Part shown: positions 12-58,584 of the stretch, piece by piece
Numbering within the stretch: position 1 is the stretch's first letter
How the letters are laid out: each line of letters starts with the position of its first letter
Assembly: GCA_044223895.1 (NCBI GenBank)
Contig: JBGALL010000001.1
Span: 27,506 to 91,505, forward strand
DNA: 64,000 nt
Direction of reading: 5' to 3'
From: Candidatus Woesebacteria bacterium
GTDB taxonomy: Bacteria > Patescibacteriota > Microgenomatia > UBA10105 > UBA927
The notes under the pieces: generated by a model
What the model saw: the letters and a program-made list of their open reading frames with translations, nothing else
The model's database searches: none
Told to the model about the DNA's origin: nothing
Program-made: the position numbers and the translations under genes

Positions 12-1226
12 TTGTTTGCTACCCCATTCCCCCATCTGATCAATACCGCATCTGGGTTTTGGTTTAGCTACGACCGACAATGGTTTAACATTGGCGGAGA
101 TCCTTTTAACCGACTAGATCCAGCAGCCAACCACCTTATTGCACCGGCTGCAGTAATGGGAATATTTTCCCTTATCTTCCTTTATGATAAACATCGTACC
201 AAAAAGAACTATTGGCTCTTACTCCCACTATCTATTCTTGCTGCAATAATAATTACCTTACAACCAATACAACTGATGGTAGTGTTTCTGGCTTTAGCTG
301 TGCACTATGGATGGCGATGGGTTACTTCTCACCAAAGATTTAACCGGGCGAACCTACAAGAATTAGTTCGAACCTTTATCCCGATGATAGTGATGGGTAT
401 CAGTATTCTTCCGTTATTCATCTACATGAATAAAATAGTCGCTATTCCTCCGTATAATGCCGGGAAAGCCTTCGAAAATTCAGTACAAGTGCATATTAAT
501 CCCTTAGTCTATCTTGAACTCTATGGACCTCTTGGGATTATTGGATTACTCGCTTTACCATTTTTTTTGAAAGGGAAAAATCATAGCCGACACCTTCTCT
601 TTATCTATTCTTTTATAGCTTTTACTATCGCCATCTCTCCCTTTCCAGAAAAAATTGAGGTATTAAATGTTCGCTTTTTGGCTGCAGTAGAGATGCTTAT
701 ATTTGCAGCCGCTTCTACCTGGGGAATTTTTGCAGTAGGAAATATTCTCAAACGTTTTTCGGTCGCGATTACGACGCTGATTATTGTACTTACTAGTTTA
801 ATGTTTGTTCCTGCCTACACTATTGAACTTCAAAAACGAATATCTCCAGATATTAATAATATGGAATATTACCTTCCTACGCCTGTCTATGAAGCTATAG
901 TACAGGCCAAGAATATGACTGCTCGAGATGAGACTATCTTGCCATTGTGGCCATTTGAAAAAATAACTTCCGCTTTAACTGGAAAAAGAGTATTGTTTTG
1001 GAACGAAAATGTTACCCTAGATTTTGAGGAGAAAAATAAACAAGCCTATTATTTTGTTGCCAACCAAATGACGGAATCTGGACGCGAAGAATTTTTAGTA
1101 AAAAATAATATTCGTACAATCATAAGTTATCTAGGATCTATTCAGTCCCCTCCTCCTTATTTGGTAGAAAAGTTTAAAAATAATCTCATGGTTGTTTATC
1201 GAGTGGAGTTGAATGATAATAGGTAA
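12..1226 (+). CDS. Polytopic membrane protein, probably 5'-truncated by the window edge; GT-C-like 'family A' paralog
   Basis: The frame is open back to base 3. There are multiple hydrophobic segments. The C-terminal ~110 aa (WPFEKI..VTLDFEEKNKQAYYFVANQMTESGREEFLVKNNIRTIISY) aligns with the C-terminus of ORF 15978..17585 (WPYEKV..LTVDFDTKNQNAYKFLVSQMTESEKKDFLKKNKITYIIAS). Confidence 0.6.
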   Translation: MFATPFPHLINTASGFWFSYDRQWFNIGGDPFNRLDPAANHLIAPAAVMGIFSLIFLYDKHRTKKNYWLLLPLSILAAIIITLQPIQLMVVFLALAVHYGWRWVTSHQRFNRANLQELVRTFIPMIVMGISILPLFIYMNKIVAIPPYNAGKAFENSVQVHINPLVYLELYGPLGIIGLLALPFFLKGKNHSRHLLFIYSFIAFTIAISPFPEKIEVLNVRFLAAVEMLIFAAASTWGIFAVGNILKRFSVAITTLIIVLTSLMFVPAYTIELQKRISPDINNMEYYLPTPVYEAIVQAKNMTARDETILPLWPFEKITSALTGKRVLFWNENVTLDFEEKNKQAYYFVANQMTESGREEFLVKNNIRTIISYLGSIQSPPPYLVEKFKNNLMVVYRVELNDNR

Positions 1227-27695: not shown

Positions 27696-27707
27696 TATTA
27701 TTCTATG

Positions 27708-27778
27708 TGGACTCGAGGGGAATCGGACCCCTTTCTACTCCATGCCATGGAGTTATACTACCGGTGTACTACGAGCCC
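27708..27778 (-). tRNA. tRNA-Ala (anticodon GGC)
   Basis: The reverse complement folds as a cloverleaf: acceptor GGGCTCG/CGAGTCC with the G3:U70 Ala identity pair, and anticodon arm ACTCC-ATGGCAT-GGAGT. The T-loop reads TCCGATT (C at position 55, unusual). No encoded CCA. Confidence 0.8.
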
Positions 27779-27857
27779 TAAAGACTAAAGCCAAAGTGGT
27801 ACGCTATATTGTACTATAAATCTTCTTTACTTTCGAACCTAAATGTAAAATTCTTTG

Positions 27858-27930
27858 TGGACCTGAGCGGAGTCGAACCGCTGATCTCCGCAATGCGAAT
27901 GCGGCGCATTACCAACTGTGCTACAGGCCC
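27858..27930 (-). tRNA. tRNA-Ala (anticodon CGC)
   Basis: Acceptor GGGCCTG/CAGGTCC with G3:U70, anticodon arm CCGCA-TTCGCAT-TGCGG, canonical T arm AGCGG-TTCGACT-CCGCT. Confidence 0.9.
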
Positions 27931-27958
27931 GTATTTCAACCTGTATTGTAGCAGAAGC

Positions 27959-29065
27959 TTACTTGAGATAGGAACCAGGATTTACCACTGCAGCACCATT
28001 AACTCGAACTTCAAAATGTAAATGGGTTCCTGTGGAACGACCAGTAGAACCCATCTTTCCAATAACCTGTCCTCTACTCACCTTGTCACCAACTTTTACA
28101 TAAATTTCTGATAAATGAGCATACAAGGTTGATAATCCACCACCATTATCAATAATAATGTGTCGTCCATAATCATATTTCAAATACTCTACCAAAATAA
28201 CGGTACCTTCCCCTGCAGCAACGACCGGAGGCATCGATGGATTCGCGATGTCAAAAGCTTTGTGATACCAGATAGGATACTGAGTAATAATGCCATTTGT
28301 GGGCCACATAAACTGCCCTGAGCCTCCTGAGACAAGTGGCGCCTGAGGGTTGGCGAATGATGGTGTCGATGGTCTCACTGGAGCCGGTGCTTCTGGCATT
28401 ACCCCATCAGGAACAATTAAGGTTTGTCCCACCGATAATCCAAAGGTATCAGAGTCAGTAAAATCATTAAAAATCCAGTTAGCTATTTTTTGAGGATCAG
28501 TTTTATACTTTTTAGCGATACTATAAATAGTTTCACCTTCACGCACTTTATGAACAATACCAGTAACTGGGGGAATTTTCAGTGTGTCACCAATTTTTAA
28601 ATTGGTACCAGACATATTATTCGCCCACTGAATTGTCTCTACTGAGATGCCATACTTGTCAGCTACTGTAGATAAAGTATCTCCCGTCTTAATGGTATAT
28701 TCCTCAACAATATCTCGGGGTTTATCTGATCGTTCTGTCTTTACCCCATATTCAGATAAATCCAATGAAGTCACTACCGCTGAGGGAGGCGTAAAGGAGT
28801 TTAAATCATTGGCGTAGGTGGAACCTGGATAGGTATCAGCCAGAATTGGGGCGGCTAATACACCGGTTGTAAATAACACAATGATAGAAAAATGCATGAA
28901 TGGGCGTTGATACATTCCCCTTCTGGCCATCAAAATATCAACCACGGTGTCTTTTTGGGTTTCAAACCAGTGGGAAAAGGTGCGGATGTGACGCTCAATG
29001 TAATATCGAAGTCCCCGATGCCATAAATTGAGGTCATCCAAGAAGATGGCAAATTGCCGCTTCAT
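27959..29065 (-). CDS. LysM-domain M23 family metallopeptidase (peptidoglycan hydrolase)
   Basis: Two LysM repeats (YTIKTGDTLSTVADKYGISVETIQWAN; HKVREGETIYSIAKKYKTDPQKIANW). M23 motifs HKAFDI and GSTGRSTGTHLHFEV. N-terminal TM anchor. Confidence 0.9.
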   Translation of the reverse strand: MKRQFAIFLDDLNLWHRGLRYYIERHIRTFSHWFETQKDTVVDILMARRGMYQRPFMHFSIIVLFTTGVLAAPILADTYPGSTYANDLNSFTPPSAVVTSLDLSEYGVKTERSDKPRDIVEEYTIKTGDTLSTVADKYGISVETIQWANNMSGTNLKIGDTLKIPPVTGIVHKVREGETIYSIAKKYKTDPQKIANWIFNDFTDSDTFGLSVGQTLIVPDGVMPEAPAPVRPSTPSFANPQAPLVSGGSGQFMWPTNGIITQYPIWYHKAFDIANPSMPPVVAAGEGTVILVEYLKYDYGRHIIIDNGGGLSTLYAHLSEIYVKVGDKVSRGQVIGKMGSTGRSTGTHLHFEVRVNGAAVVNPGSYLK

Positions 29066-29117: not shown

Positions 29118-30689
29118 TTAGTCGCCTTTAGCAAGTGATTCTAGAAATTCATCGTTCTTTTCAACTTTTCCAAGGCGATCAATTAACATGACTGTTCGTT
29201 CTTCATCTGAAAGCATAGATAACATATGTCGCAAGGTAGTAACCTTTTTCATTTTTTCTTCTCCCAAAAGGAGTTCATCATGACGTGTTCCTGATTTAGC
29301 GATATCAATTGCTGGGAAAATACGTCGTTCTTGCAATACTCGTGAGAGGTGCAATTCCATGTTTCCTGTCCCTTTAAATTCTTCGTAGATTAAATCATCC
29401 ATGCGACTTCCAGTATCTACTAATGCAGTACCTATAACAGTCAGAGATCCACCTGGTTGTGGCTGTCCATCTGGACCGGTTACTTCTACACATCGTGCAG
29501 CCCCTAAGAATCTTTTTGCTGGATACAAAGCTGCCGGATCAAATCCACCTGATAAGGTTCTTCCTGATGGATTAACGACTAAATTATATGCTCGGGCTAA
29601 GCGAGTAATAGAATCTAATAAGACGACAACATCTTTTCCCATCTCTACTAAGCGTTTGGCTCTATCCAAAGCAACTTCAGCAATTCTGGTTTGTTCTTGT
29701 GGTGACTGATCAAAATTACTGGCTAAAACTTCACCTTTGACACTTCGAGAGATATCGGTTACTTCTTCTGGTCGCTCACCAATTAAAGTCGCCATAAGAT
29801 GAACTTCTGGGAAATTAGCAGCAATACCAGCAGCTAATTCTTTGATAATAGTAGTTTTTCCAGCTTTTGGAGGAGAGACAATTAAGCCTCGTTGCCCAAA
29901 TCCAATGGGAGCAACTAAATCAATTATCCGCGTGGACAAAGGAATTTTTCCTGTTTCTAAGATCAATAATTTATTTGGATAAATAGGGGTTAAGTCTTCA
30001 AATTTAGGACGATTGGTCATTTCTTCCGCAAGTCGTTGATTAATTTTTTCTACTTTTAATAATCCCCAGTATCGTTCGTTTTCTTTTGGTTGGCGGGCTT
30101 GCCCTTCGACCATATCCCCGTTTCTTAAGAGGAAACGACGAATTTGGGATTGGGAAATATAAATATCTCGATCACTGGGGGTAAATTTAGGTCGTAAAAA
30201 TCCATGACCTTCTGGCATAACATCCAAAATTCCATGAACAGTCTCTGTAGGAACGTTAATATCTTGCGTATATCCACCATCTGGTGAGGCAAAATCACGA
30301 CGCATTCCCATACGACGATGTCCACCTTGGTTATTGTTATTGTTGTTATTATAGCGATTGCGATATCCACCGCCGCCATAATTACCACCACCATAATTAT
30401 TACCATTACCACGGAACTGTTGCTGAGGAGCAGAATGTCCAACATTTTGAGTAATTGGTTGACTGTCTACTGGTGGTAAAGGGAGTTCATTTCTCGGTTC
30501 TTCAGCAGGTCGAGCTACAGGAGCTACGCTTTCCTGAACTGGAGTATTTGATGGTGTACCTATAAAGTCATCAACAGATAAGTTTGCAGCTGGAATAGCT
30601 GGAGCTTCTTCTACGGGTTGAGTTTCAACCGCTTTGGTTTTGCGTGATGGTTTGGTAGTTATTGGTTTTCTGGAAGCACGGAATGCCAT
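29118..30689 (-). CDS. rho: Transcription termination factor Rho with ~150-aa low-complexity N-terminal extension
   Basis: It is collinear with E. coli Rho (recalled from memory) from [14 protein letters not shown] through [50 protein letters not shown] to the C-terminus. Confidence 0.95.
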
Positions 30690-30809
30690 ACAAGAGGTGT
30701 TAAAAAAAAACGATTATACTGTTTCCATGGGATATTTATTGGGCTAGATACCTATACTATTTTGCGAGAAAAAGTAAGAGAACATTAAACCTTTGAGGTT
30801 ATCTGACGT

Positions 30810-30838
30810 ATTACACCATGGGAGTGTAATTTTGTCAA
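30810..30838 (-). promoter_or_regulatory. Candidate sigma-70-type promoter for rho with a ~110-nt leader
   Basis: The minus strand reads TTGACA (30838..30833), a 17-nt spacer, then TGTAAT (30815..30810). Confidence 0.5.
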
Positions 30839-30854
30839 TAGGTACAAATAACTA

Positions 30855-32498
30855 TTAATTTTTCTCGTATATGACCGTATTTCCGGAACGGAACACTTCA
30901 TGAGAGATGGTTGCTAGTTCAGATTCTGCCAATTTAGTGAATTTTTTCCTCTCTAAATCGCCTACTATTATATAGTGGACATTGTACTTATTAAGTACTT
31001 CTAAACGTTTCGCTGGGTCGTTGCCTTCGTATACAGCAGCAACTTCATCCTTTCTGGGTGATACAACATCATAGGTTCCTCTCCATAGCCATTCATGAAC
31101 TCCCCAGCCGACGACTGTTGGCATGCCTGCAAAGGCACTCATTCGATCGAAGTCAGTATAACTATCCCCATCTGCTTCAATAATCACGGGAATAGTAGCT
31201 AGATGAGAAGTAAAAAAGTTGTCATGTACATGACTGTCCATTTTTGACAAATTCTTCAAAAATGACCACCCAGATTGCTTGCCCACCGTAGCTTTAGCGA
31301 AGGAGGGCTCTGACGTTCTTGTAGAAATCCACTCCATTGCCGCGAAGTCGTCTGGATATTCACGCTGAAACCAGCTTAAACCATACAATCCTTTGTAGGT
31401 TTGTAGATTACCAAAATAAGAACGCACAGAAAAAAATGGGAAGATCGATACTAAAAACAATTGAGGGATAAGCAAAATAAAAAATAACCGTTTCCCCCAC
31501 GTCCTCACCAAAGCGTTAGCGACAGAGGGTTTTTCCGTTGCTGTGACGCTTCTTTGCAGTAGGTTTACAATTACATACCCACACAGCAATGAACACATCA
31601 TAAATGCTTGGTATCCTAGCTTAAACATAGTATTACTCCGGAAATGAGCCGGATATATATCCTTAAAGTAGAAAAACTCCGCAAAGAAAATAAGTCCGAC
31701 ACAGTAGAAGAACACAGTAATTAAAAATTTTTCAACTGGAGATGAGAATTCAAAAAATTTTCTTTTGGAAACGTTGAATTCCAAACTCTTAAATTTCAGT
31801 TGTTTAATAATTAAGGTAGTACCACAGAAGAAAAAGAATCCCCACAGCAAAGAAACCATCCACATTGGTGATTTCTGACACTTATCTACGGTTTCAAAAA
31901 TAATTGGACCAAACTTCATATTTTCCAATGCTTTTGGTGGACAATTGACGGCTAAGCCATTAGCAAATGAAGTAAACGTTAATAAGAAAGGAAGCGCCGT
32001 AAGAACAACCCCGATCACAGCAATACCAAGTCTCTCCCCTTTTTCCCATAGCCATTCATAAGAAAGGAAGGAAAATGATGAAGATTGAAATAACAACAGC
32101 AAGGAAAATAATCCCATATAGATGGGGCCATCGAGGGCATTGGTCATTAACAATATTCCACTGAGTACACCATATAATCCATATGGAGCTAAATGACTGA
32201 GCTTTTCCCGGTTAAGGGTAGCTTTAGCACTAGCAAACAGTGTTAATAACGAAGCTATAGCCAATAAGGCAAAAGGAATAGAGAGTACATGTCCATGATT
32301 ATCTGAAACGACAAATGAATAGCTCGGGAATTCGTGAATGGTAAACGGTATAAATCGAGTTGCGTTTGCATACCAATACGTATTTAATCCTTCAGGAAGC
32401 TTGGTAAAGAATTGATCGACTGGCCAGATAATTTTCCAAAATGGTGGTGGGGTGTCTTCACCGTTATAGCCTTTCGTAAAGGCATAAATCGTCTGCAT
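30855..32498 (-). CDS. DUF2298 / 'YYY' family membrane protein, C-terminal fragment (3 of 3)
   Basis: TIHEFPSYSFVVSDNHGHVLSIPF motif and a C-terminal soluble domain typical of this family. It follows two shorter same-strand ORFs that carry the N-terminal parts. Confidence 0.7.
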   Translation of the reverse strand: MQTIYAFTKGYNGEDTPPPFWKIIWPVDQFFTKLPEGLNTYWYANATRFIPFTIHEFPSYSFVVSDNHGHVLSIPFALLAIASLLTLFASAKATLNREKLSHLAPYGLYGVLSGILLMTNALDGPIYMGLFSLLLLFQSSSFSFLSYEWLWEKGERLGIAVIGVVLTALPFLLTFTSFANGLAVNCPPKALENMKFGPIIFETVDKCQKSPMWMVSLLWGFFFFCGTTLIIKQLKFKSLEFNVSKRKFFEFSSPVEKFLITVFFYCVGLIFFAEFFYFKDIYPAHFRSNTMFKLGYQAFMMCSLLCGYVIVNLLQRSVTATEKPSVANALVRTWGKRLFFILLIPQLFLVSIFPFFSVRSYFGNLQTYKGLYGLSWFQREYPDDFAAMEWISTRTSEPSFAKATVGKQSGWSFLKNLSKMDSHVHDNFFTSHLATIPVIIEADGDSYTDFDRMSAFAGMPTVVGWGVHEWLWRGTYDVVSPRKDEVAAVYEGNDPAKRLEVLNKYNVHYIIVGDLERKKFTKLAESELATISHEVFRSGNTVIYEKN

Positions 32499-32527
32499 AT
32501 TTCCATACTAGGTCACCAGATACGCGC

Positions 32528-32926
32528 TCAGTAAACCGGGACAATGATATACCATTTTTTTCCAATTTTTCGATTATGAAAACGCATACTGGTACGAAGT
32601 AATTGACAACTGATAGAAAAACTCATGGTGAAACATAAAGCAAAGATAGTAGTCAGCATTAAGTTGTATCCATAGGCCAAATCAATAGAAGAAAGTTTTG
32701 ACAACAATGCCATTGTCATATGTCCAAAGTAGTAATAGTTAATTGTTCCACCGGCATACCACATGTCTGGAGGAAAGTAAGAAGAGTTATAGATGGTTTT
32801 AGCAAAGCCATAATCCATGAATTTTTCTAGTCCACGAATATCGGGTTCGAAGGCTTTGATATAACTCCAAAAACTTAAACAAACCAAGAAAAATACCTCA
32901 AGGATAATCATTCTCCAAGAGATCAT
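32528..32926 (-). CDS. DUF2298 / 'YYY' family membrane protein, middle fragment (2 of 3)
   Basis: LEKFMDYGF..FPPDMWYAGGTINYYYFGH signature. Confidence 0.65.
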   Translation of the reverse strand: MISWRMIILEVFFLVCLSFWSYIKAFEPDIRGLEKFMDYGFAKTIYNSSYFPPDMWYAGGTINYYYFGHMTMALLSKLSSIDLAYGYNLMLTTIFALCFTMSFSISCQLLRTSMRFHNRKIGKKWYIIVPVY

Positions 32927-33285
32927 TTGACGATCTGTATCATTTCTTTATGTTTATCAGACTGTTTAAATGGACTCTGGATACCTATTATCCCTAATAT
33001 ACTGGTGATAATTCGCTGTGTTGAAGAAAGGTTTTGAGCAATGACTCCAATTGAAAAAAGCAAAAACAGACTAATTAAAATTGTAATCTGAGTAAATGGA
33101 AGTAGTTTATAACTTCCCAGGTACCAGGTTATAAAGGTTACCCCAGCCAGACCAACTGCTTTAGAAAGAAGATATCCTTGATCCCACCAAGAAGAGAATA
33201 ATTTTCTGGTTAATGGTAAGGCAGCTGCTCCAATGAGAAATAAAACCGCCCACCAACCAAGAATAAGAAATAAATCCTGAGACAT
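32923..33285 (-). CDS. DUF2298 / 'YYY' family membrane protein, N-terminal fragment (1 of 3)
   Basis: Three TM segments with WWDQGYLLSKAVGL. Its stop overlaps the next start (ATGA). Confidence 0.6.
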   Translation of the reverse strand: MSQDLFLILGWWAVLFLIGAAALPLTRKLFSSWWDQGYLLSKAVGLAGVTFITWYLGSYKLLPFTQITILISLFLLFSIGVIAQNLSSTQRIITSILGIIGIQSPFKQSDKHKEMIQIVK

Positions 33286-38572: not shown

Positions 38573-39543
38573 GATATACCGTCTTTATAATTCATTGCTG
38601 GTTTCCAATGAATTTCCTGTTCAATCTTGGCTGTATTGGCTACAAAATATGGTTGATCACCTGGTCTTTCTTTTTGGAGGGTTGTAGGGATAGAGGACCC
38701 CACAAGTTCTTCTATCATTGGACCAAACTCTTTCCAGATAGAGATGCTATTCGTTGCTCCCCCACCCATGTTATAAATCTTTCCTTTAGTAAGGTTAATT
38801 TGAGAGATAGCTGTATCATAGGCAGTAATTAAATCTTCTACCCAGAGGATGTCACGTACTTGTTTGCCTGTTCCATAGATAGTAATTGGTCGTTTGTTGA
38901 TAGCTGCAATGAGAAACCAGGCTACCCATCCCTGATCTTCTATTCCCAACTGATGAGGCCCATAGATACATGACTGACGAAATACCAAGGTAGGAATATC
39001 ATACATCCGTGCATAATCACGAACATATTGATCAGCAGCTCCCTTACTACAACCATACGGAGAATGAAAATCTAAGGGCTCTGTTTCATCTATGCCATCT
39101 GGTCGGTCCGGACACATATATCTCGTCTCGGTTTCAGCAATCTTGAGATGTTCTAGCCCTCCATATACTTTATTAGTAGAACTGTAGATAACAATTGGTG
39201 GTTTGGTACTCTTCCTAGCCGCCTCTAGTACATTGACTGTTCCCCAAGCATTTGACTGGAAGTCATTCACTGGATCAATGACCGATCCTGTAACCGCTAC
39301 TTGGCCGGCAAAATGAAAGACTATGTCAGCCTGTTGGATTGGTTGCAGATCAGCTTCTTTCCGAACATCGGCTGTAATAATTTCTACCGCTGGATAGGTT
39401 TTCTTTAGCCACTCGGCATTGAGGTCGGTTCCTTTGCGAGAGAAATTATCGAGGATAGTAACCTTTTCCTTCTTTTCCAAATAAAAGGCTGCTGTATTAA
39501 CCCCGATAAATCCCGCTCCTCCAGTAATAACGATATGTTTCAT
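38539..39543 (-). CDS. SDR sugar epimerase, CDP-paratose/tyvelose 2-epimerase-like
   Basis: Near end-to-end resemblance to Salmonella Tyv/RfbE as I recall it: ITGGAGFIG, ILDNFSRKG..NAEWL, SSTNKVYG, HSPYGCSKGAADQY, DQGWVAWF, GTGKQVRD. Confidence 0.8.
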   Translation of the reverse strand: MKHIVITGGAGFIGVNTAAFYLEKKEKVTILDNFSRKGTDLNAEWLKKTYPAVEIITADVRKEADLQPIQQADIVFHFAGQVAVTGSVIDPVNDFQSNAWGTVNVLEAARKSTKPPIVIYSSTNKVYGGLEHLKIAETETRYMCPDRPDGIDETEPLDFHSPYGCSKGAADQYVRDYARMYDIPTLVFRQSCIYGPHQLGIEDQGWVAWFLIAAINKRPITIYGTGKQVRDILWVEDLITAYDTAISQINLTKGKIYNMGGGATNSISIWKEFGPMIEELVGSSIPTTLQKERPGDQPYFVANTAKIEQEIHWKPAMNYKDGISHLYRWLKNAA

Positions 39544-54768: not shown

Positions 54769-54892
54769 CCCCCAGCCTTGACCTATCTTCCAATAGCCCG
54801 CGAGAGCTAAGTATTGTGGGCGCTAACGTGTTTCACTGCTGAGTTCGAGATGGGATCAGGTGGGACCACGTTGCTCAAAAGACTGGAAGACC
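54766..54892 (-). rRNA. rrf: 5S rRNA
   Basis: The reverse complement contains GGTCCCACCTGATCCCATCTCGAACTCAGCAGTGAAAC. Terminal helix GGTCTTCCAG/CTGGGGGACC. Ends are approximate (+/- 5 nt). Confidence 0.9.
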
Positions 54893-55048
54893 CAAAAGCG
54901 GCCTTCACTTTATTACAGTAAAAATTTTAAATTCTCAACTTTACACTTTTCTAGTAGTTGCCTAAAAGGGATAATTCATGAGAATCACCGATTTTATGCT
55001 TTCAATAGTATCATCAGAGAAAACAACTCCCGACTTAGTCGGGACCCT

Positions 55049-58282
<3,234 letters not shown>

Positions 58283-58511
58283 AAGGTTCGTCCGTTTTTG
58301 ACGAATTTTGTTCTGACGACTCAATTTACAATGGCATAAAAATAGAAGTAATTCTAAATGAATTACCCCTTTTAGATGCAACTACTCATTTAATTTTTCA
58401 ATTCTTACTGTATTAAAGTGTTAAAGAGCAATGTTCAGATGTATGAATTAATAACTGAAATTAACTAATTAATTTTCAGATATCAATTCATAATATCGAA
58501 CTATGTAGCGG

Positions 58512-58584
58512 TGGACCTGGGGGGAGTCGAACCCCCTACCTCCTCATTGCAAATGAGGCATTCAACCAGGTAAACTTCAGGCCC
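58512..58584 (-). tRNA. tRNA-Ala (anticodon UGC) upstream of the 23S
   Basis: Acceptor GGGCCTG/CAGGTCC with G3:U70, anticodon arm CCTCA-TTTGCAA-TGAGG, T arm GGGGG-TTCGACT-CCCCC. Confidence 0.9.

Follow-up and report, generated by a model that had tools for sequence, protein, structure and literature searches.

A Patescibacterial Rho Factor with a Conserved, Predicted-Disordered N-Terminal Tail in Place of the Helix Bundle

In Escherichia coli Rho, a basic N-terminal helix bundle (NHB) provides non-specific RNA affinity. Surveys place atypical Rho in about 40% of species, and 7.8% of Rho sequences have residues ahead of the OB fold in which no N-terminal domain can be recognised ('2d', PMC11347177), so that disordered-insert Rho is not confined to the 'few' proteins suggested in the preliminary description of the locus studied here. 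Type 2d was defined by Moreira, Chyou, Wade and Brown (NAR 2024, PMC11347177), with Microbacterium oleivorans and many PVC and Spirochaetota species as examples. In some other Rho proteins the disordered segment accompanies the bundle. Mycobacterium tuberculosis Rho keeps the bundle with its NID inserted behind (Type 2c), and the NIDs of this protein and of Micrococcus luteus Rho raise RNA affinity (PMC13650167, PMC8828861), Arg-rich NIDs being required for Rut-site engagement (PMC13650167; PMC11347177). Bacteroides thetaiotaomicron Rho (BtRho) has an intact NHB followed by a 309-aa insertion comprising KE-rich, BCD and prion-like subdomains, and short charged motifs in this IDR govern RNA-dependent condensation (PMC13269538); mycobacterial Rho IDRs likewise undergo phase separation (bioRxiv 10.1101/2025.08.28.672908). 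Finally, the short-form Rho proteins (Type 4 or 'group B'; NF041509 paralog_Rho2; Fusobacterium nucleatum) begin at the OB fold without bundle or extension. As the sole Rho of Fusobacterium is of this kind and its gene is essential (PMC11347177), replacement of a missing bundle is not obligatory.

The gene described here lies in a 64,000-nucleotide stretch of a Candidatus Woesebacteria genome (the window, to which all positions refer; Table 1). It encodes a Rho factor, as first proposed, scoring 539.6 bits against the NCBIfam Rho equivalog NF006886 (cut-off 315) and 531 bits against TIGR00767 (cut-off 509.45), with matches to Rho chains in the PDB down to E=1e-123. Homology starts at the OB fold, again in agreement with the preliminary description: every Rho chain of the PDB is matched from about residue 150–152 onward, and the NCBIfam equivalogs align from model position 50. 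The primary binding site (PBS) residues F64/R66/Y80/E108/Y110 of E. coli Rho correspond to F164/R166/Y177/E205/Y207, the first four of which are invariant among 118 homologues and the last at least 90% conserved, while the position of E. coli F62 is taken by H162. The ATPase motor contains a 9-aa insertion, specific to the clade, near residues 403–411. Its Walker A (PPKAGKTT), catalytic Glu (GERPEEV), Walker B (LLDS), Q-loop, R-loop (TGSRMD) and Arg finger (SGTRHDE) line up with those of solved Rho structures and do not vary among the same 118 homologues. The AlphaFold2 (AF2) model of the core has pLDDT values of 85–96. With its catalytic and RNA-binding residues intact, the gene is, judged by its sequence, the genuine and evidently functional Rho termination factor of a patescibacterial genome (Microgenomates, Gottesmanbacteria-like). 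With a canonical OB-fold primary site and a canonical RecA-type hexameric motor, the core would be expected to pass through the usual cycle, loading on C-rich unstructured RNA, shutting into a ring, translocating 5'→3' on ATP and dislodging RNA polymerase.

Table 1. Positions of the rho gene and its parts in the window
Feature	Coordinates	Strand	Basis or remark
rho gene, 523 aa plus stop	29118..30689	(-)	ORF list, NCBIfam scores, PDB Rho matches
rho 5' intergenic/leader	30690..30854	(-)	TATAAT box 30713-30718 and T-run, read from sequence
N-terminal intrinsically disordered extension without helix bundle (predicted), residues 1-150	30240..30689	(-)	AF2, Rho_N, NHB HMM, hhalign
Basic head, residues 1-19	30633..30689	(-)	start motif MA[FY][RK]A[ST]xK at residues 1-8
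Acidic-hydrophobic short linear motif LS[VI][DE]DL[IV]GxP (motif 2), residues 37-46	30552..30581	(-)	conservation
Variable Pro/Glu/Gln/Ala-rich spacer, residues 47-91	30417..30551	(-)	17% identity, length 6-85 aa in homologues
Gly/Asn/Tyr/Arg low-complexity block, residues 92-131	30297..30416	(-)	family Arg/Gly/Tyr block, unusually Asn-rich here
Degenerate hexanucleotide (AACAAT) array	30330..30352	(-)	TRF: period 6, 3.8 copies, score 32
Acidic tail motif, residues 141-151, entering OB strand beta1	30237..30269	(-)	88% identity; T148, E149, T150 invariant
OB-fold RNA-binding domain (primary binding site), residues 152-219	30033..30236	(-)	Pfam Rho_RNA_bind PF07497, E=1.1e-27
RecA-type ATPase motor, residues 253-466	29292..29933	(-)	Pfam ATP-synt_ab PF00006

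Ahead of this core the helix bundle that characterizes canonical (Type 1) Rho could not be found. Pfam Rho_N (PF07498) has no match in the whole protein at E≤1, nor at E≤10 among 40 homologous N-termini. An iterated custom NHB HMM detects the bundle in 115 of the 146 nearest 50%-identity cluster representatives but in 0 of the 120 family members. A vestigial bundle was also considered, motif 2 (here SVDDLIG) being superficially like helix 1 of the E. coli NHB (VSELITLG), and was ruled out by profile–profile comparison (hhalign) of residues 1–60, 25–55 and 1–150 with a 116-sequence NHB alignment, which gave probabilities of 0.3–0.7%, all below 1%. AF2, run with a 118-sequence MSA, predicts in residues 1–150 no folded bundle of the kind that would have overturned the preliminary description: from residue 1 to about 140–150 the pLDDT is about 39–53 with essentially no secondary structure, the only helical turn of the tail falls on residues 39–41 inside motif 2, a strand starts at residue 148 within the acidic tail motif, and the model shows no sign of the tail motifs docking on the core. 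Pro and Gly make up 22% of the tail and hydrophobic residues 16%. Both the absence of the canonical bundle and, at the level of structure prediction, the disorder of the first ~145 residues, as put forward in the preliminary description, are thus borne out. It is, in our view, highly probable that the protein is a Rho without NHB whose tail is disordered and kept by selection.

The tail is built to a fixed order: the basic head comes first and is followed by an acidic spacer that closes with motif 2, a Pro/Glu spacer, an Arg/Gly/Tyr block and an acidic tail with the motif TQDI[ND]VPTETV. Scanning by pattern gave matches in 334 GTDB species genomes, the layout itself being read in 80 fetched loci that include Gottesman-, Woese-, Davies- and Levybacteria, with a Pacebacteria variant coming from separate searches. 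Residues 1–8 show 78% identity across the family, and the net charge of residues 1–20 is +7 in the window Rho and +5 in the family median. Motif 2 is present in 101 of 118 homologues at 59% identity, with S38, G44 and P46 at least 90% conserved (alignment A1), as is D41 in a 40-sequence N-terminal alignment (A2), and variants of it persist in Davies-, Levy- and Pacebacteria. Between the conserved motifs (59–88% identity) the spacers drift (13–26%), and the alignment columns matching the low-complexity block hold 11–74 aa among homologues; this block has, under a sliding-window rule, a family median net charge of +7 and a median Lys count of 0. The sequence of charge blocks, +5/−4/−1/+7/−3, is conserved across the family, and every indel that separates the window Rho from its nearest relative (L081, 84% identical) has a length divisible by 3. 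Motifs and charge pattern being conserved clade-wide, the tail is to all appearances non-random and under selection. An earlier characterization of the N-terminal region as Pro/Ala/Glu/Gln-rich is roughly right, although residues 1–91 are better described as Pro/Ala/Thr/Gln/Val/Glu-rich and the first 19 are strongly basic. The block at residues 92–131 is encoded by AAT/AAC and GGT/GGC/GGA codons and was located by the preliminary description at about 30300–30420, close to the exact span. Of 16,247 windows of 40 aa in the 47 long ORFs of the window this one has the lowest entropy (2.43 bits versus a mean of 3.73, sd 0.18), a low complexity far above chance expectation.

On sequence grounds, this architecture corresponds to Type 2d: some 150 aa precede the OB fold, and this pre-OB region holds no recognisable Rho N-terminal domain. 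As in the published examples, an OB fold and Rho ATPase follow more than 25 aa of biased, predicted-disordered sequence without detectable NHB, and counterparts exist for the APA-like Pro/Ala stretch, for the Arg-rich stretch and for the acidic motif adjoining the OB fold, the last lining up with the place of the actinobacterial 'EDDV' in M. tuberculosis Rho (PMC11347177). The differences lie in the phylum, Patescibacteria not being mentioned in the Type 2d paper (PMC11347177), in the length of the extension (150 aa versus up to 393), in its composition (Gly/Tyr/Arg versus RxR/QN) and in the clade's own motifs (MAFRASxK, motif 2 and TQDI[ND]VPTETV). With the NIDs of M. tuberculosis and M. luteus Rho the protein shares an Arg/Gly-rich disordered segment just before the OB fold, and HMMER aligns window residues 88–150 to the end of the M. 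tuberculosis NID; unlike M. tuberculosis Rho, it has no bundle ahead of that segment. In BtRho, too, the N-terminal region is disordered and carries short charged motifs that are conserved, along with blocks of alternating charge (PMC13269538), yet its IDR has no sequence similarity to the present tail.

What might such a tail do? The six tails would crown the RNA-entry face of the Rho hexamer, where the Arg/Tyr block and the basic head could give the non-specific RNA affinity otherwise supplied by the basic helix bundle, much as the Arg-rich insertion domains of M. luteus and M. tuberculosis Rho do. The alternating acidic and basic blocks would permit intra- or intermolecular electrostatics that either gate RNA binding or drive RNA-dependent condensation after the model of BtRho. 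The tail does share with phase-separating Rho proteins a disordered N-terminus with charged motifs (AF2 pLDDT below 55 combined with the charge pattern given above), and given the BtRho-like charge blocks, RNA-dependent complex coacervation is plausible for the window Rho too. The block had been called RGG-like in the preliminary description, and this holds only in a loose sense, its composition being Gly/Arg/Tyr-rich (GGY, GYR); an RGG/RG box in the strict sense it is not, with zero RGG triplets and one RG in the window protein and a family median of 0 RGG (maximum 4). The case for RNA binding by the tail is therefore one of composition and analogy. We infer RNA capture, autoinhibition and condensation, and we judge the chances that RNA capture and/or condensation is the tail's main role to be evenly balanced. 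Taken as a whole, the description of the protein as a canonical Rho core whose bundle is replaced by a block-structured disordered tail, RNA-capturing and possibly condensate-forming, is the one we moderately favor. More tentatively, the tail may be a compact modular replacement of the bundle in which motif 2 and the acidic tail regulate, by autoinhibition or partner docking, two basic RNA-capturing blocks.

Alternatively, the conserved tail motifs might serve to dock a protein partner. In its full form this alternative makes the tail mainly a docking hub, with the MAFRASxK head and motif 2 recruiting a partner such as the ribosome, a regulator, NusA, NusG or a subunit of RNA polymerase, so standing in for the helix-bundle contacts of E. 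coli pre-termination complexes, and with the low-complexity segments serving as flexible spacers only. Sharply conserved short islands amid poorly conserved spacers of very variable length are typical of short linear interaction motifs and to that extent speak for it, as do the slightly higher pLDDT and the helical turn predicted for motif 2. A mere spacer, however, would not need the composition and charge that the Arg/Gly/Tyr block keeps in each homologue (+7, no Lys), and no other ORF within the 64-kb window carries motif 2, which might have hinted at a shared partner; one loose match (IEELVG, 38698–38715) was judged not credible as a second copy, leaving rho alone with the motif. We hold a tail given over mainly to docking to be rather unlikely, while noting that docking and RNA capture or condensation are compatible and not mutually exclusive.

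Far less probable is that the tail is a prion-forming domain switching Rho to a self-propagating, aggregated and inactive state. In its favor, the disordered region holds 12 Asn in 39 residues and a run of seven (N7), the longest homopolymer run in the 47 long ORFs, such runs being expected at ~3e-6. The classical prion criterion, reportedly set by Michelitsch and Weissman in 2000, is at least 30 Q/N in 80 residues; the maximum here is 22, and 0 of 120 family members reach 30. These explicit compositional measures (Q/N per 80 aa and Asn per 21 aa) constituted our prion test. Precedent comes from Clostridium botulinum Rho (PMC4703818; Yuan and Hochschild 2017, as cited in PMC12360218), which also has an Asn-containing low-complexity segment N-terminal to its OB fold; there, however, the PrD is long and Asn-dominated with an amyloid core of 67% Asn over 21 residues (PMC4703818), whereas the best 21-aa window here holds 9 Asn (43%) set among Gly and Arg, and the Asn stretch is broken up by 7 Arg and 12 Gly. 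Moreover, the N7 run is the longest and the Asn-richness the most extreme among 118 homologues (family median Asn 3.3%), and both are missing in the nearest relative. The label 'prion-like' of the preliminary description is for these reasons not upheld.

As the Asn content is maximal of 118 and the run is missing in that nearest relative, Asn is not the selected feature; the poly-Asn stretch of this genome arose by recent expansion, within its own lineage, of an AACAAT repeat and is no conserved functional feature. The array encodes N114–N120 (30330–30350), its TRF span reaching 2 nt into the Y113 codon. Slippage at these codon repeats, suggested earlier, finds weak backing: TRF reports only a degenerate 23-nt array, while a 15-nt in-frame indel separates the nearest relative from the window Rho at exactly that point. 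A strong tandem repeat or contingency locus was ruled out, the sole array being weak, short and of period 6 and hence not comparable with phase-variable tracts.

The rho ATG is the first start past an in-frame stop located 8 codons upstream, and 115 of the 118 homologues begin with the motif MA[FY][RK]A[ST], also seen across the fetched genome loci, which identifies the upstream start, a point singled out beforehand for checking, as genuine. Reading of the sequence found no Shine–Dalgarno (SD) element before the ATG. The closest relative keeps the TATAAT box as well as the T-run and the surroundings of the ATG; a consensus promoter/terminator scan of the rho flanks returned nothing beyond shuffled expectation and did not call the TATAAT box, which is therefore put forward as a putative promoter element. 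Like short-form Rho the protein is without the bundle; unlike it, it has a conserved 150-aa extension. That this extension is non-functional, whether because the start was mis-called and the real protein begins at about M127/M129 as a short-form Rho or because a low-complexity sequence drifted neutrally in a reduced, AT-rich genome, is the least credible reading of all: although some public annotations begin at an internal Met (the 412-aa P0051, on a contig, L012, that nevertheless bears the full MAFKAT... ORF), the upstream ATG goes without SD element and SD-like strings arise from GGN codons ahead of M127, the start motif and whole block architecture are kept with in-frame indels only, the 5' leader and ATG context are kept in L081, the internal Met is not conserved, YRREW or GYRRD standing in its place in many homologues, and conservation of the N-terminus together with a score of 434.8 against the short-form model NF041509 (cut-off 628) rules out a downstream start. 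The family thereby draws attention to certain public annotations that shorten these rho genes to an internal Met.

To our knowledge, the studied cases of Rho with a disordered N-terminus all come from cultivated phyla and all retain the bundle. Here, a whole class of uncultivated, reduced-genome bacteria, the Microgenomates, has lost the bundle and has kept in its stead a short, motif-punctuated Arg/Gly/Tyr tail. The protein is a new example of an already described atypical Rho, extending Type 2d to Patescibacteria, and no new kind of system; the motif set of the Microgenomates tail is previously undescribed. Disordered N-terminal variants of Rho are now tied to the choice of Rut sites, to phase separation and to fitness under stress, and the well-aligned family at hand, with its pattern match in 334 species genomes and its defined motifs, is suited to mutational tests. 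If the modular arrangement proposed above is true, a switchable, possibly condensate-forming terminator would be common to a whole class of ultra-small, host-dependent bacteria, and its ~150 aa would provide a minimal natural system for how short motifs in an IDR tune an essential RNA motor.

The 523-residue product of rho (see the table) is a bona fide Rho, as the preliminary description had it. It clears both cut-offs of the NF006886/TIGR00767-type NCBIfam Rho equivalogs (539.6 against 315 and 531 against 509.45), contains the two Pfam domains listed in the table and matches every solved Rho structure with E = 1e-111 to 1e-123, the alignment always starting at residue ~150–152 of the window protein. 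Residues F164, R166, Y177, E205 and Y207 of the primary RNA-binding site (PBS; E. coli F64, R66, Y80, E108 and Y110) are kept, as are Walker A/B, the catalytic Glu, the Q-loop, the R-loop and the Arg finger, and all of these are invariant or almost so among 118 homologues. Two otherwise conserved Rho positions have changed and are invariant in the clade: E. coli PBS residue F62 is His at residue 162 (EGHGFLR), and D210 (LIDERPEEV) is Gly at residue 304, the resulting LIGERPEEV resembling the GER motif of F1-ATPase beta. The ATPase domain also carries, between GAARCVE and GGSLTV, a 9-residue insertion (VTGPDGQPQ) that is absent from every solved Rho structure, is modelled by AlphaFold2 as an extended beta-hairpin, and is conserved in the clade in its presence, with variable sequence.

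Features of the Rho protein and of its surroundings in the window
Feature	Residues	Window positions	Strand	Remarks
rho ORF	1–523	29118–30689	minus	ORF list
Rho_RNA_bind	152–219			Pfam
ATP-synt_ab, nucleotide-binding domain	253–466			Pfam
Tail block 1, basic head				residues 1–8 78% identical across the family
Tail block 2, acidic spacer				ends in LS[VI][DE]DL[IV]GxP (residues 37–46); block charge about −4
Tail block 3, Pro/Glu/Gln/Ala spacer				6–85 residues long, 17% identical
Tail block 4, Arg/Gly/Tyr(Phe/Asn/Gln) block				medians: net charge +7, 10 Arg, 0 Lys, 8 aromatic residues
Tail block 5, acidic tail				11-residue motif TQDI[ND]VPTETV, 88% identical; T148, E149, T150 invariant
Low-complexity string	92–131	30297–30416	minus	
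ATPase-domain insertion	~403–411	~29457–29483	minus	
rho leader		30690–30760	minus	positions 54–123 in the locus of the closest relative
Membrane-protein ORFs (120, 132, 547 aa)		30855–33285	minus	directly upstream of rho
Peptidase-like gene		27959–29065	minus	52 nt after rho
Peptidase-like gene with the following tRNA-Ala pair		27707–29065	minus	anticodons CGC and GGC
23S rRNA region		54770–58584	minus	
5S rRNA		54770–54887	minus	downstream of 23S
tRNA-Ala (TGC)		58510–58584	minus	by the 23S gene, upstream

The canonical N-terminal helix bundle (NHB), described earlier as apparently absent, was sought in the N-terminus and not found. Pfam Rho_N gives no match to the whole window protein at E ≤ 1, nor to any of 40 homologous N-termini at E ≤ 10. 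An NHB profile, built from canonical-length Rho proteins and iterated to 116 sequences, recognizes 115 of the 146 nearest representatives of 50%-identity clusters as having the bundle, which in them usually opens the protein and has a long insertion behind it; in the window protein's family it recognizes 0 of 120 members even at E ≤ 10, and profile–profile comparison of the family N-terminus with the NHB alignment gives a probability <1%. AlphaFold2, run with the 118-sequence alignment, models the core with pLDDT 85–96 and residues 1–140 with pLDDT 39–53, a helical turn at 39–41 being the sole secondary structure there. The structural interpretation, a disordered tail and no helix bundle, is correct.

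The alternative that the true start codon lies downstream of the low-complexity region was also checked, and conservation upholds the upstream start. MA[FY][RK]A[ST] opens 115 of the 118 homologues and heads the ORF in most of 80 fetched genome loci, and the internal M127 and M129 are not conserved among homologues. Comparison with the nearest relative (84% identity) shows a conserved rho 5′ leader and, in the part of the gene that encodes the N-terminus, six indels, each a multiple of three in length. This leader, common to the two closest genomes, comprises a TATAAT box and a T-run, with an anti-SD-like CACCTC before the rho ATG in place of a Shine–Dalgarno sequence, features that could bear on autoregulation of rho or on non-SD initiation. 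Public annotations of the family exist that start at an internal Met (protein records P0051, 412 aa, and P0271, 406 aa); since the full conserved MAFKAT... ORF is present on the contig of P0051 (JACREM010000053.1, locus L012), these records cut the disordered tail short.

Alignments and per-segment statistics of the family resolve the tail (residues 1–150) into the five blocks listed in the table. Net charge over residues 1–20 is +7 in the window protein (family median +5). Identity in the motif closing block 2 is 59%, S38, G44 and P46 being at least 90% conserved and D41 likewise in a 40-sequence N-terminal alignment; the motif of block 5 leads into the first OB strand in the AlphaFold2 model. 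What is conserved, then, is the composition, the charge pattern and three short motifs, with sequence and length free to vary in between, the hallmark of a disordered region that has a function.

The N/G/R string reported at about 30300–30420 is indeed there: no 40-residue stretch in the window's 47 long ORFs has a lower entropy than residues 92–131 (2.43 bits; mean 3.73, sd 0.18), and N7 is the longest homopolymer run in these ORFs, with about 3e-6 such runs expected. Tail Asn content (11.3%) is the extreme among the 118 homologues (median 3.3%), as is the length of the N7 run, 79 of the 118 having no run longer than 1; the nearest relative has ...YRNRFGGGQGHRR... opposite an 18-residue segment of the window protein. 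In the DNA alignment with this relative the site of a 15-nt in-frame indel is exactly that of the AACAAT-type array, which TRF reports as a weak 23-nt repeat of period 6, so that slippage is a reasonable origin of the Asn run. The tract, short and in-frame, gives no sign of phase variation.

The classical Q/N-rich criterion is at least 30 Q/N in 80 residues; the maximum in the window protein is 22, and 0 family members reach 30. Its best 21-residue stretch holds 9 Asn, and the C. botulinum Rho core is 67% Asn (PMC4703818). The emphasis on a prion-like tail has a lineage-specific Asn run as its basis and finds no support. Strict RGG boxes are absent, with 0 RGG in the window protein (family median 0). 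The conserved chemistry is Arg with Tyr/Phe and Gly; as judged from composition, this is a 'sticker–spacer' arrangement of the kind common in regions that bind RNA or form condensates.

From a classification of 2730 genomes, Moreira et al. (NAR 2024) defined 'Type 2d' Rho, in which a region precedes the OB fold but no N-terminal domain is recognizable. It makes up 7.8% of Rho sequences, with the PVC group, Spirochaetota and some Actinomycetota as notable carriers, and the region was proposed as a possible remnant of, or functional replacement for, the N-terminal domain (PMC11347177). The window protein shows both defining features of Type 2d, and the acidic motif next to its OB fold parallels the actinobacterial 'EDDV' motif, the positions of the two being aligned by HMMER. 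C. botulinum, B. thetaiotaomicron and M. tuberculosis Rho all keep the bundle that the window protein lacks. Short-form (Type 4) Rho is ruled out by an NF041509 score below its cut-off. Patescibacteria or CPR are not mentioned by Moreira et al. (PMC11347177), and a full-text literature search returned no paper connecting Patescibacteria with Rho disorder. The architecture falls into a published category, to which a new phylum, with a set of motifs specific to the clade, is now added.

Named homologues belong to Candidatus Gottesmanbacteria or the Patescibacteria group. Two peptide patterns taken from the junction of tail and OB fold, run against GTDB at one genome per species, identified 334 genomes encoding a relative; those that are named are Gottesmanbacteria, Woesebacteria, Daviesbacteria, Levyibacteriota and 'Microgenomates group'. 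The more distant Davies-, Levy- and Pacebacteria have recognizable variants of the layout (M[PA]xT[RK]SFKPK..., ...[ED][EQ]LVGxP..., a GY/R-rich block and ...RDVPTE[ED]V). The nearest out-of-clade relatives (~60% core identity; named Chloroflexota/Limnocylindrales and Eremiobacterota/Binatia) keep the bundle, with a short basic region before it. The simplest reading of these sequences is that the bundle was lost on the Microgenomates branch. The Microgenomates-specific Rho is also encoded in many MAG records (SPIRE/binchicken-type assemblies; loci L001, L006, L007, L009 and others) that bear the title 'uncultured Gammaproteobacteria bacterium', evidently placeholder or mislabelled taxonomy.

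Around rho, three consecutive same-strand ORFs encode hydrophobic membrane-protein fragments, the first two sharing a 4-nt overlap; the three resemble a single large membrane protein broken up by frameshifts, or else a truly split gene. On the other side lies a LysM-repeat, M23-type peptidase-like gene (family judged from its sequence), followed by two adjacent tRNA-Ala genes. Elsewhere, the match to 23S rRNA is 3224 nt long where the Rfam model has 2925 nt, the extra ~300 nt possibly being an insertion or intron. No 16S rRNA was found in the remaining 5.4 kb upstream of 23S within the window, so the 16S gene appears unlinked.

The core of this Rho should work as in E. coli, with six tails projecting from the ring face that bears the primary RNA-binding sites. 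In the Rho proteins of M. luteus and M. tuberculosis, Arg-rich insertion domains raise RNA affinity and are needed to engage most Rut sites (PMC13650167; PMC11347177), and by analogy we infer that the Arg/Tyr block and basic head most likely add non-specific RNA affinity; the tail would then stand in for the basic helix bundle. Folding back onto the basic blocks or the OB cleft is one possible behaviour of the interleaved acidic blocks and the acidic-hydrophobic motif; binding a partner is another. Either would give regulation, as in the B. thetaiotaomicron Rho IDR, for which regulation by short charged motifs has been shown (PMC13269538).
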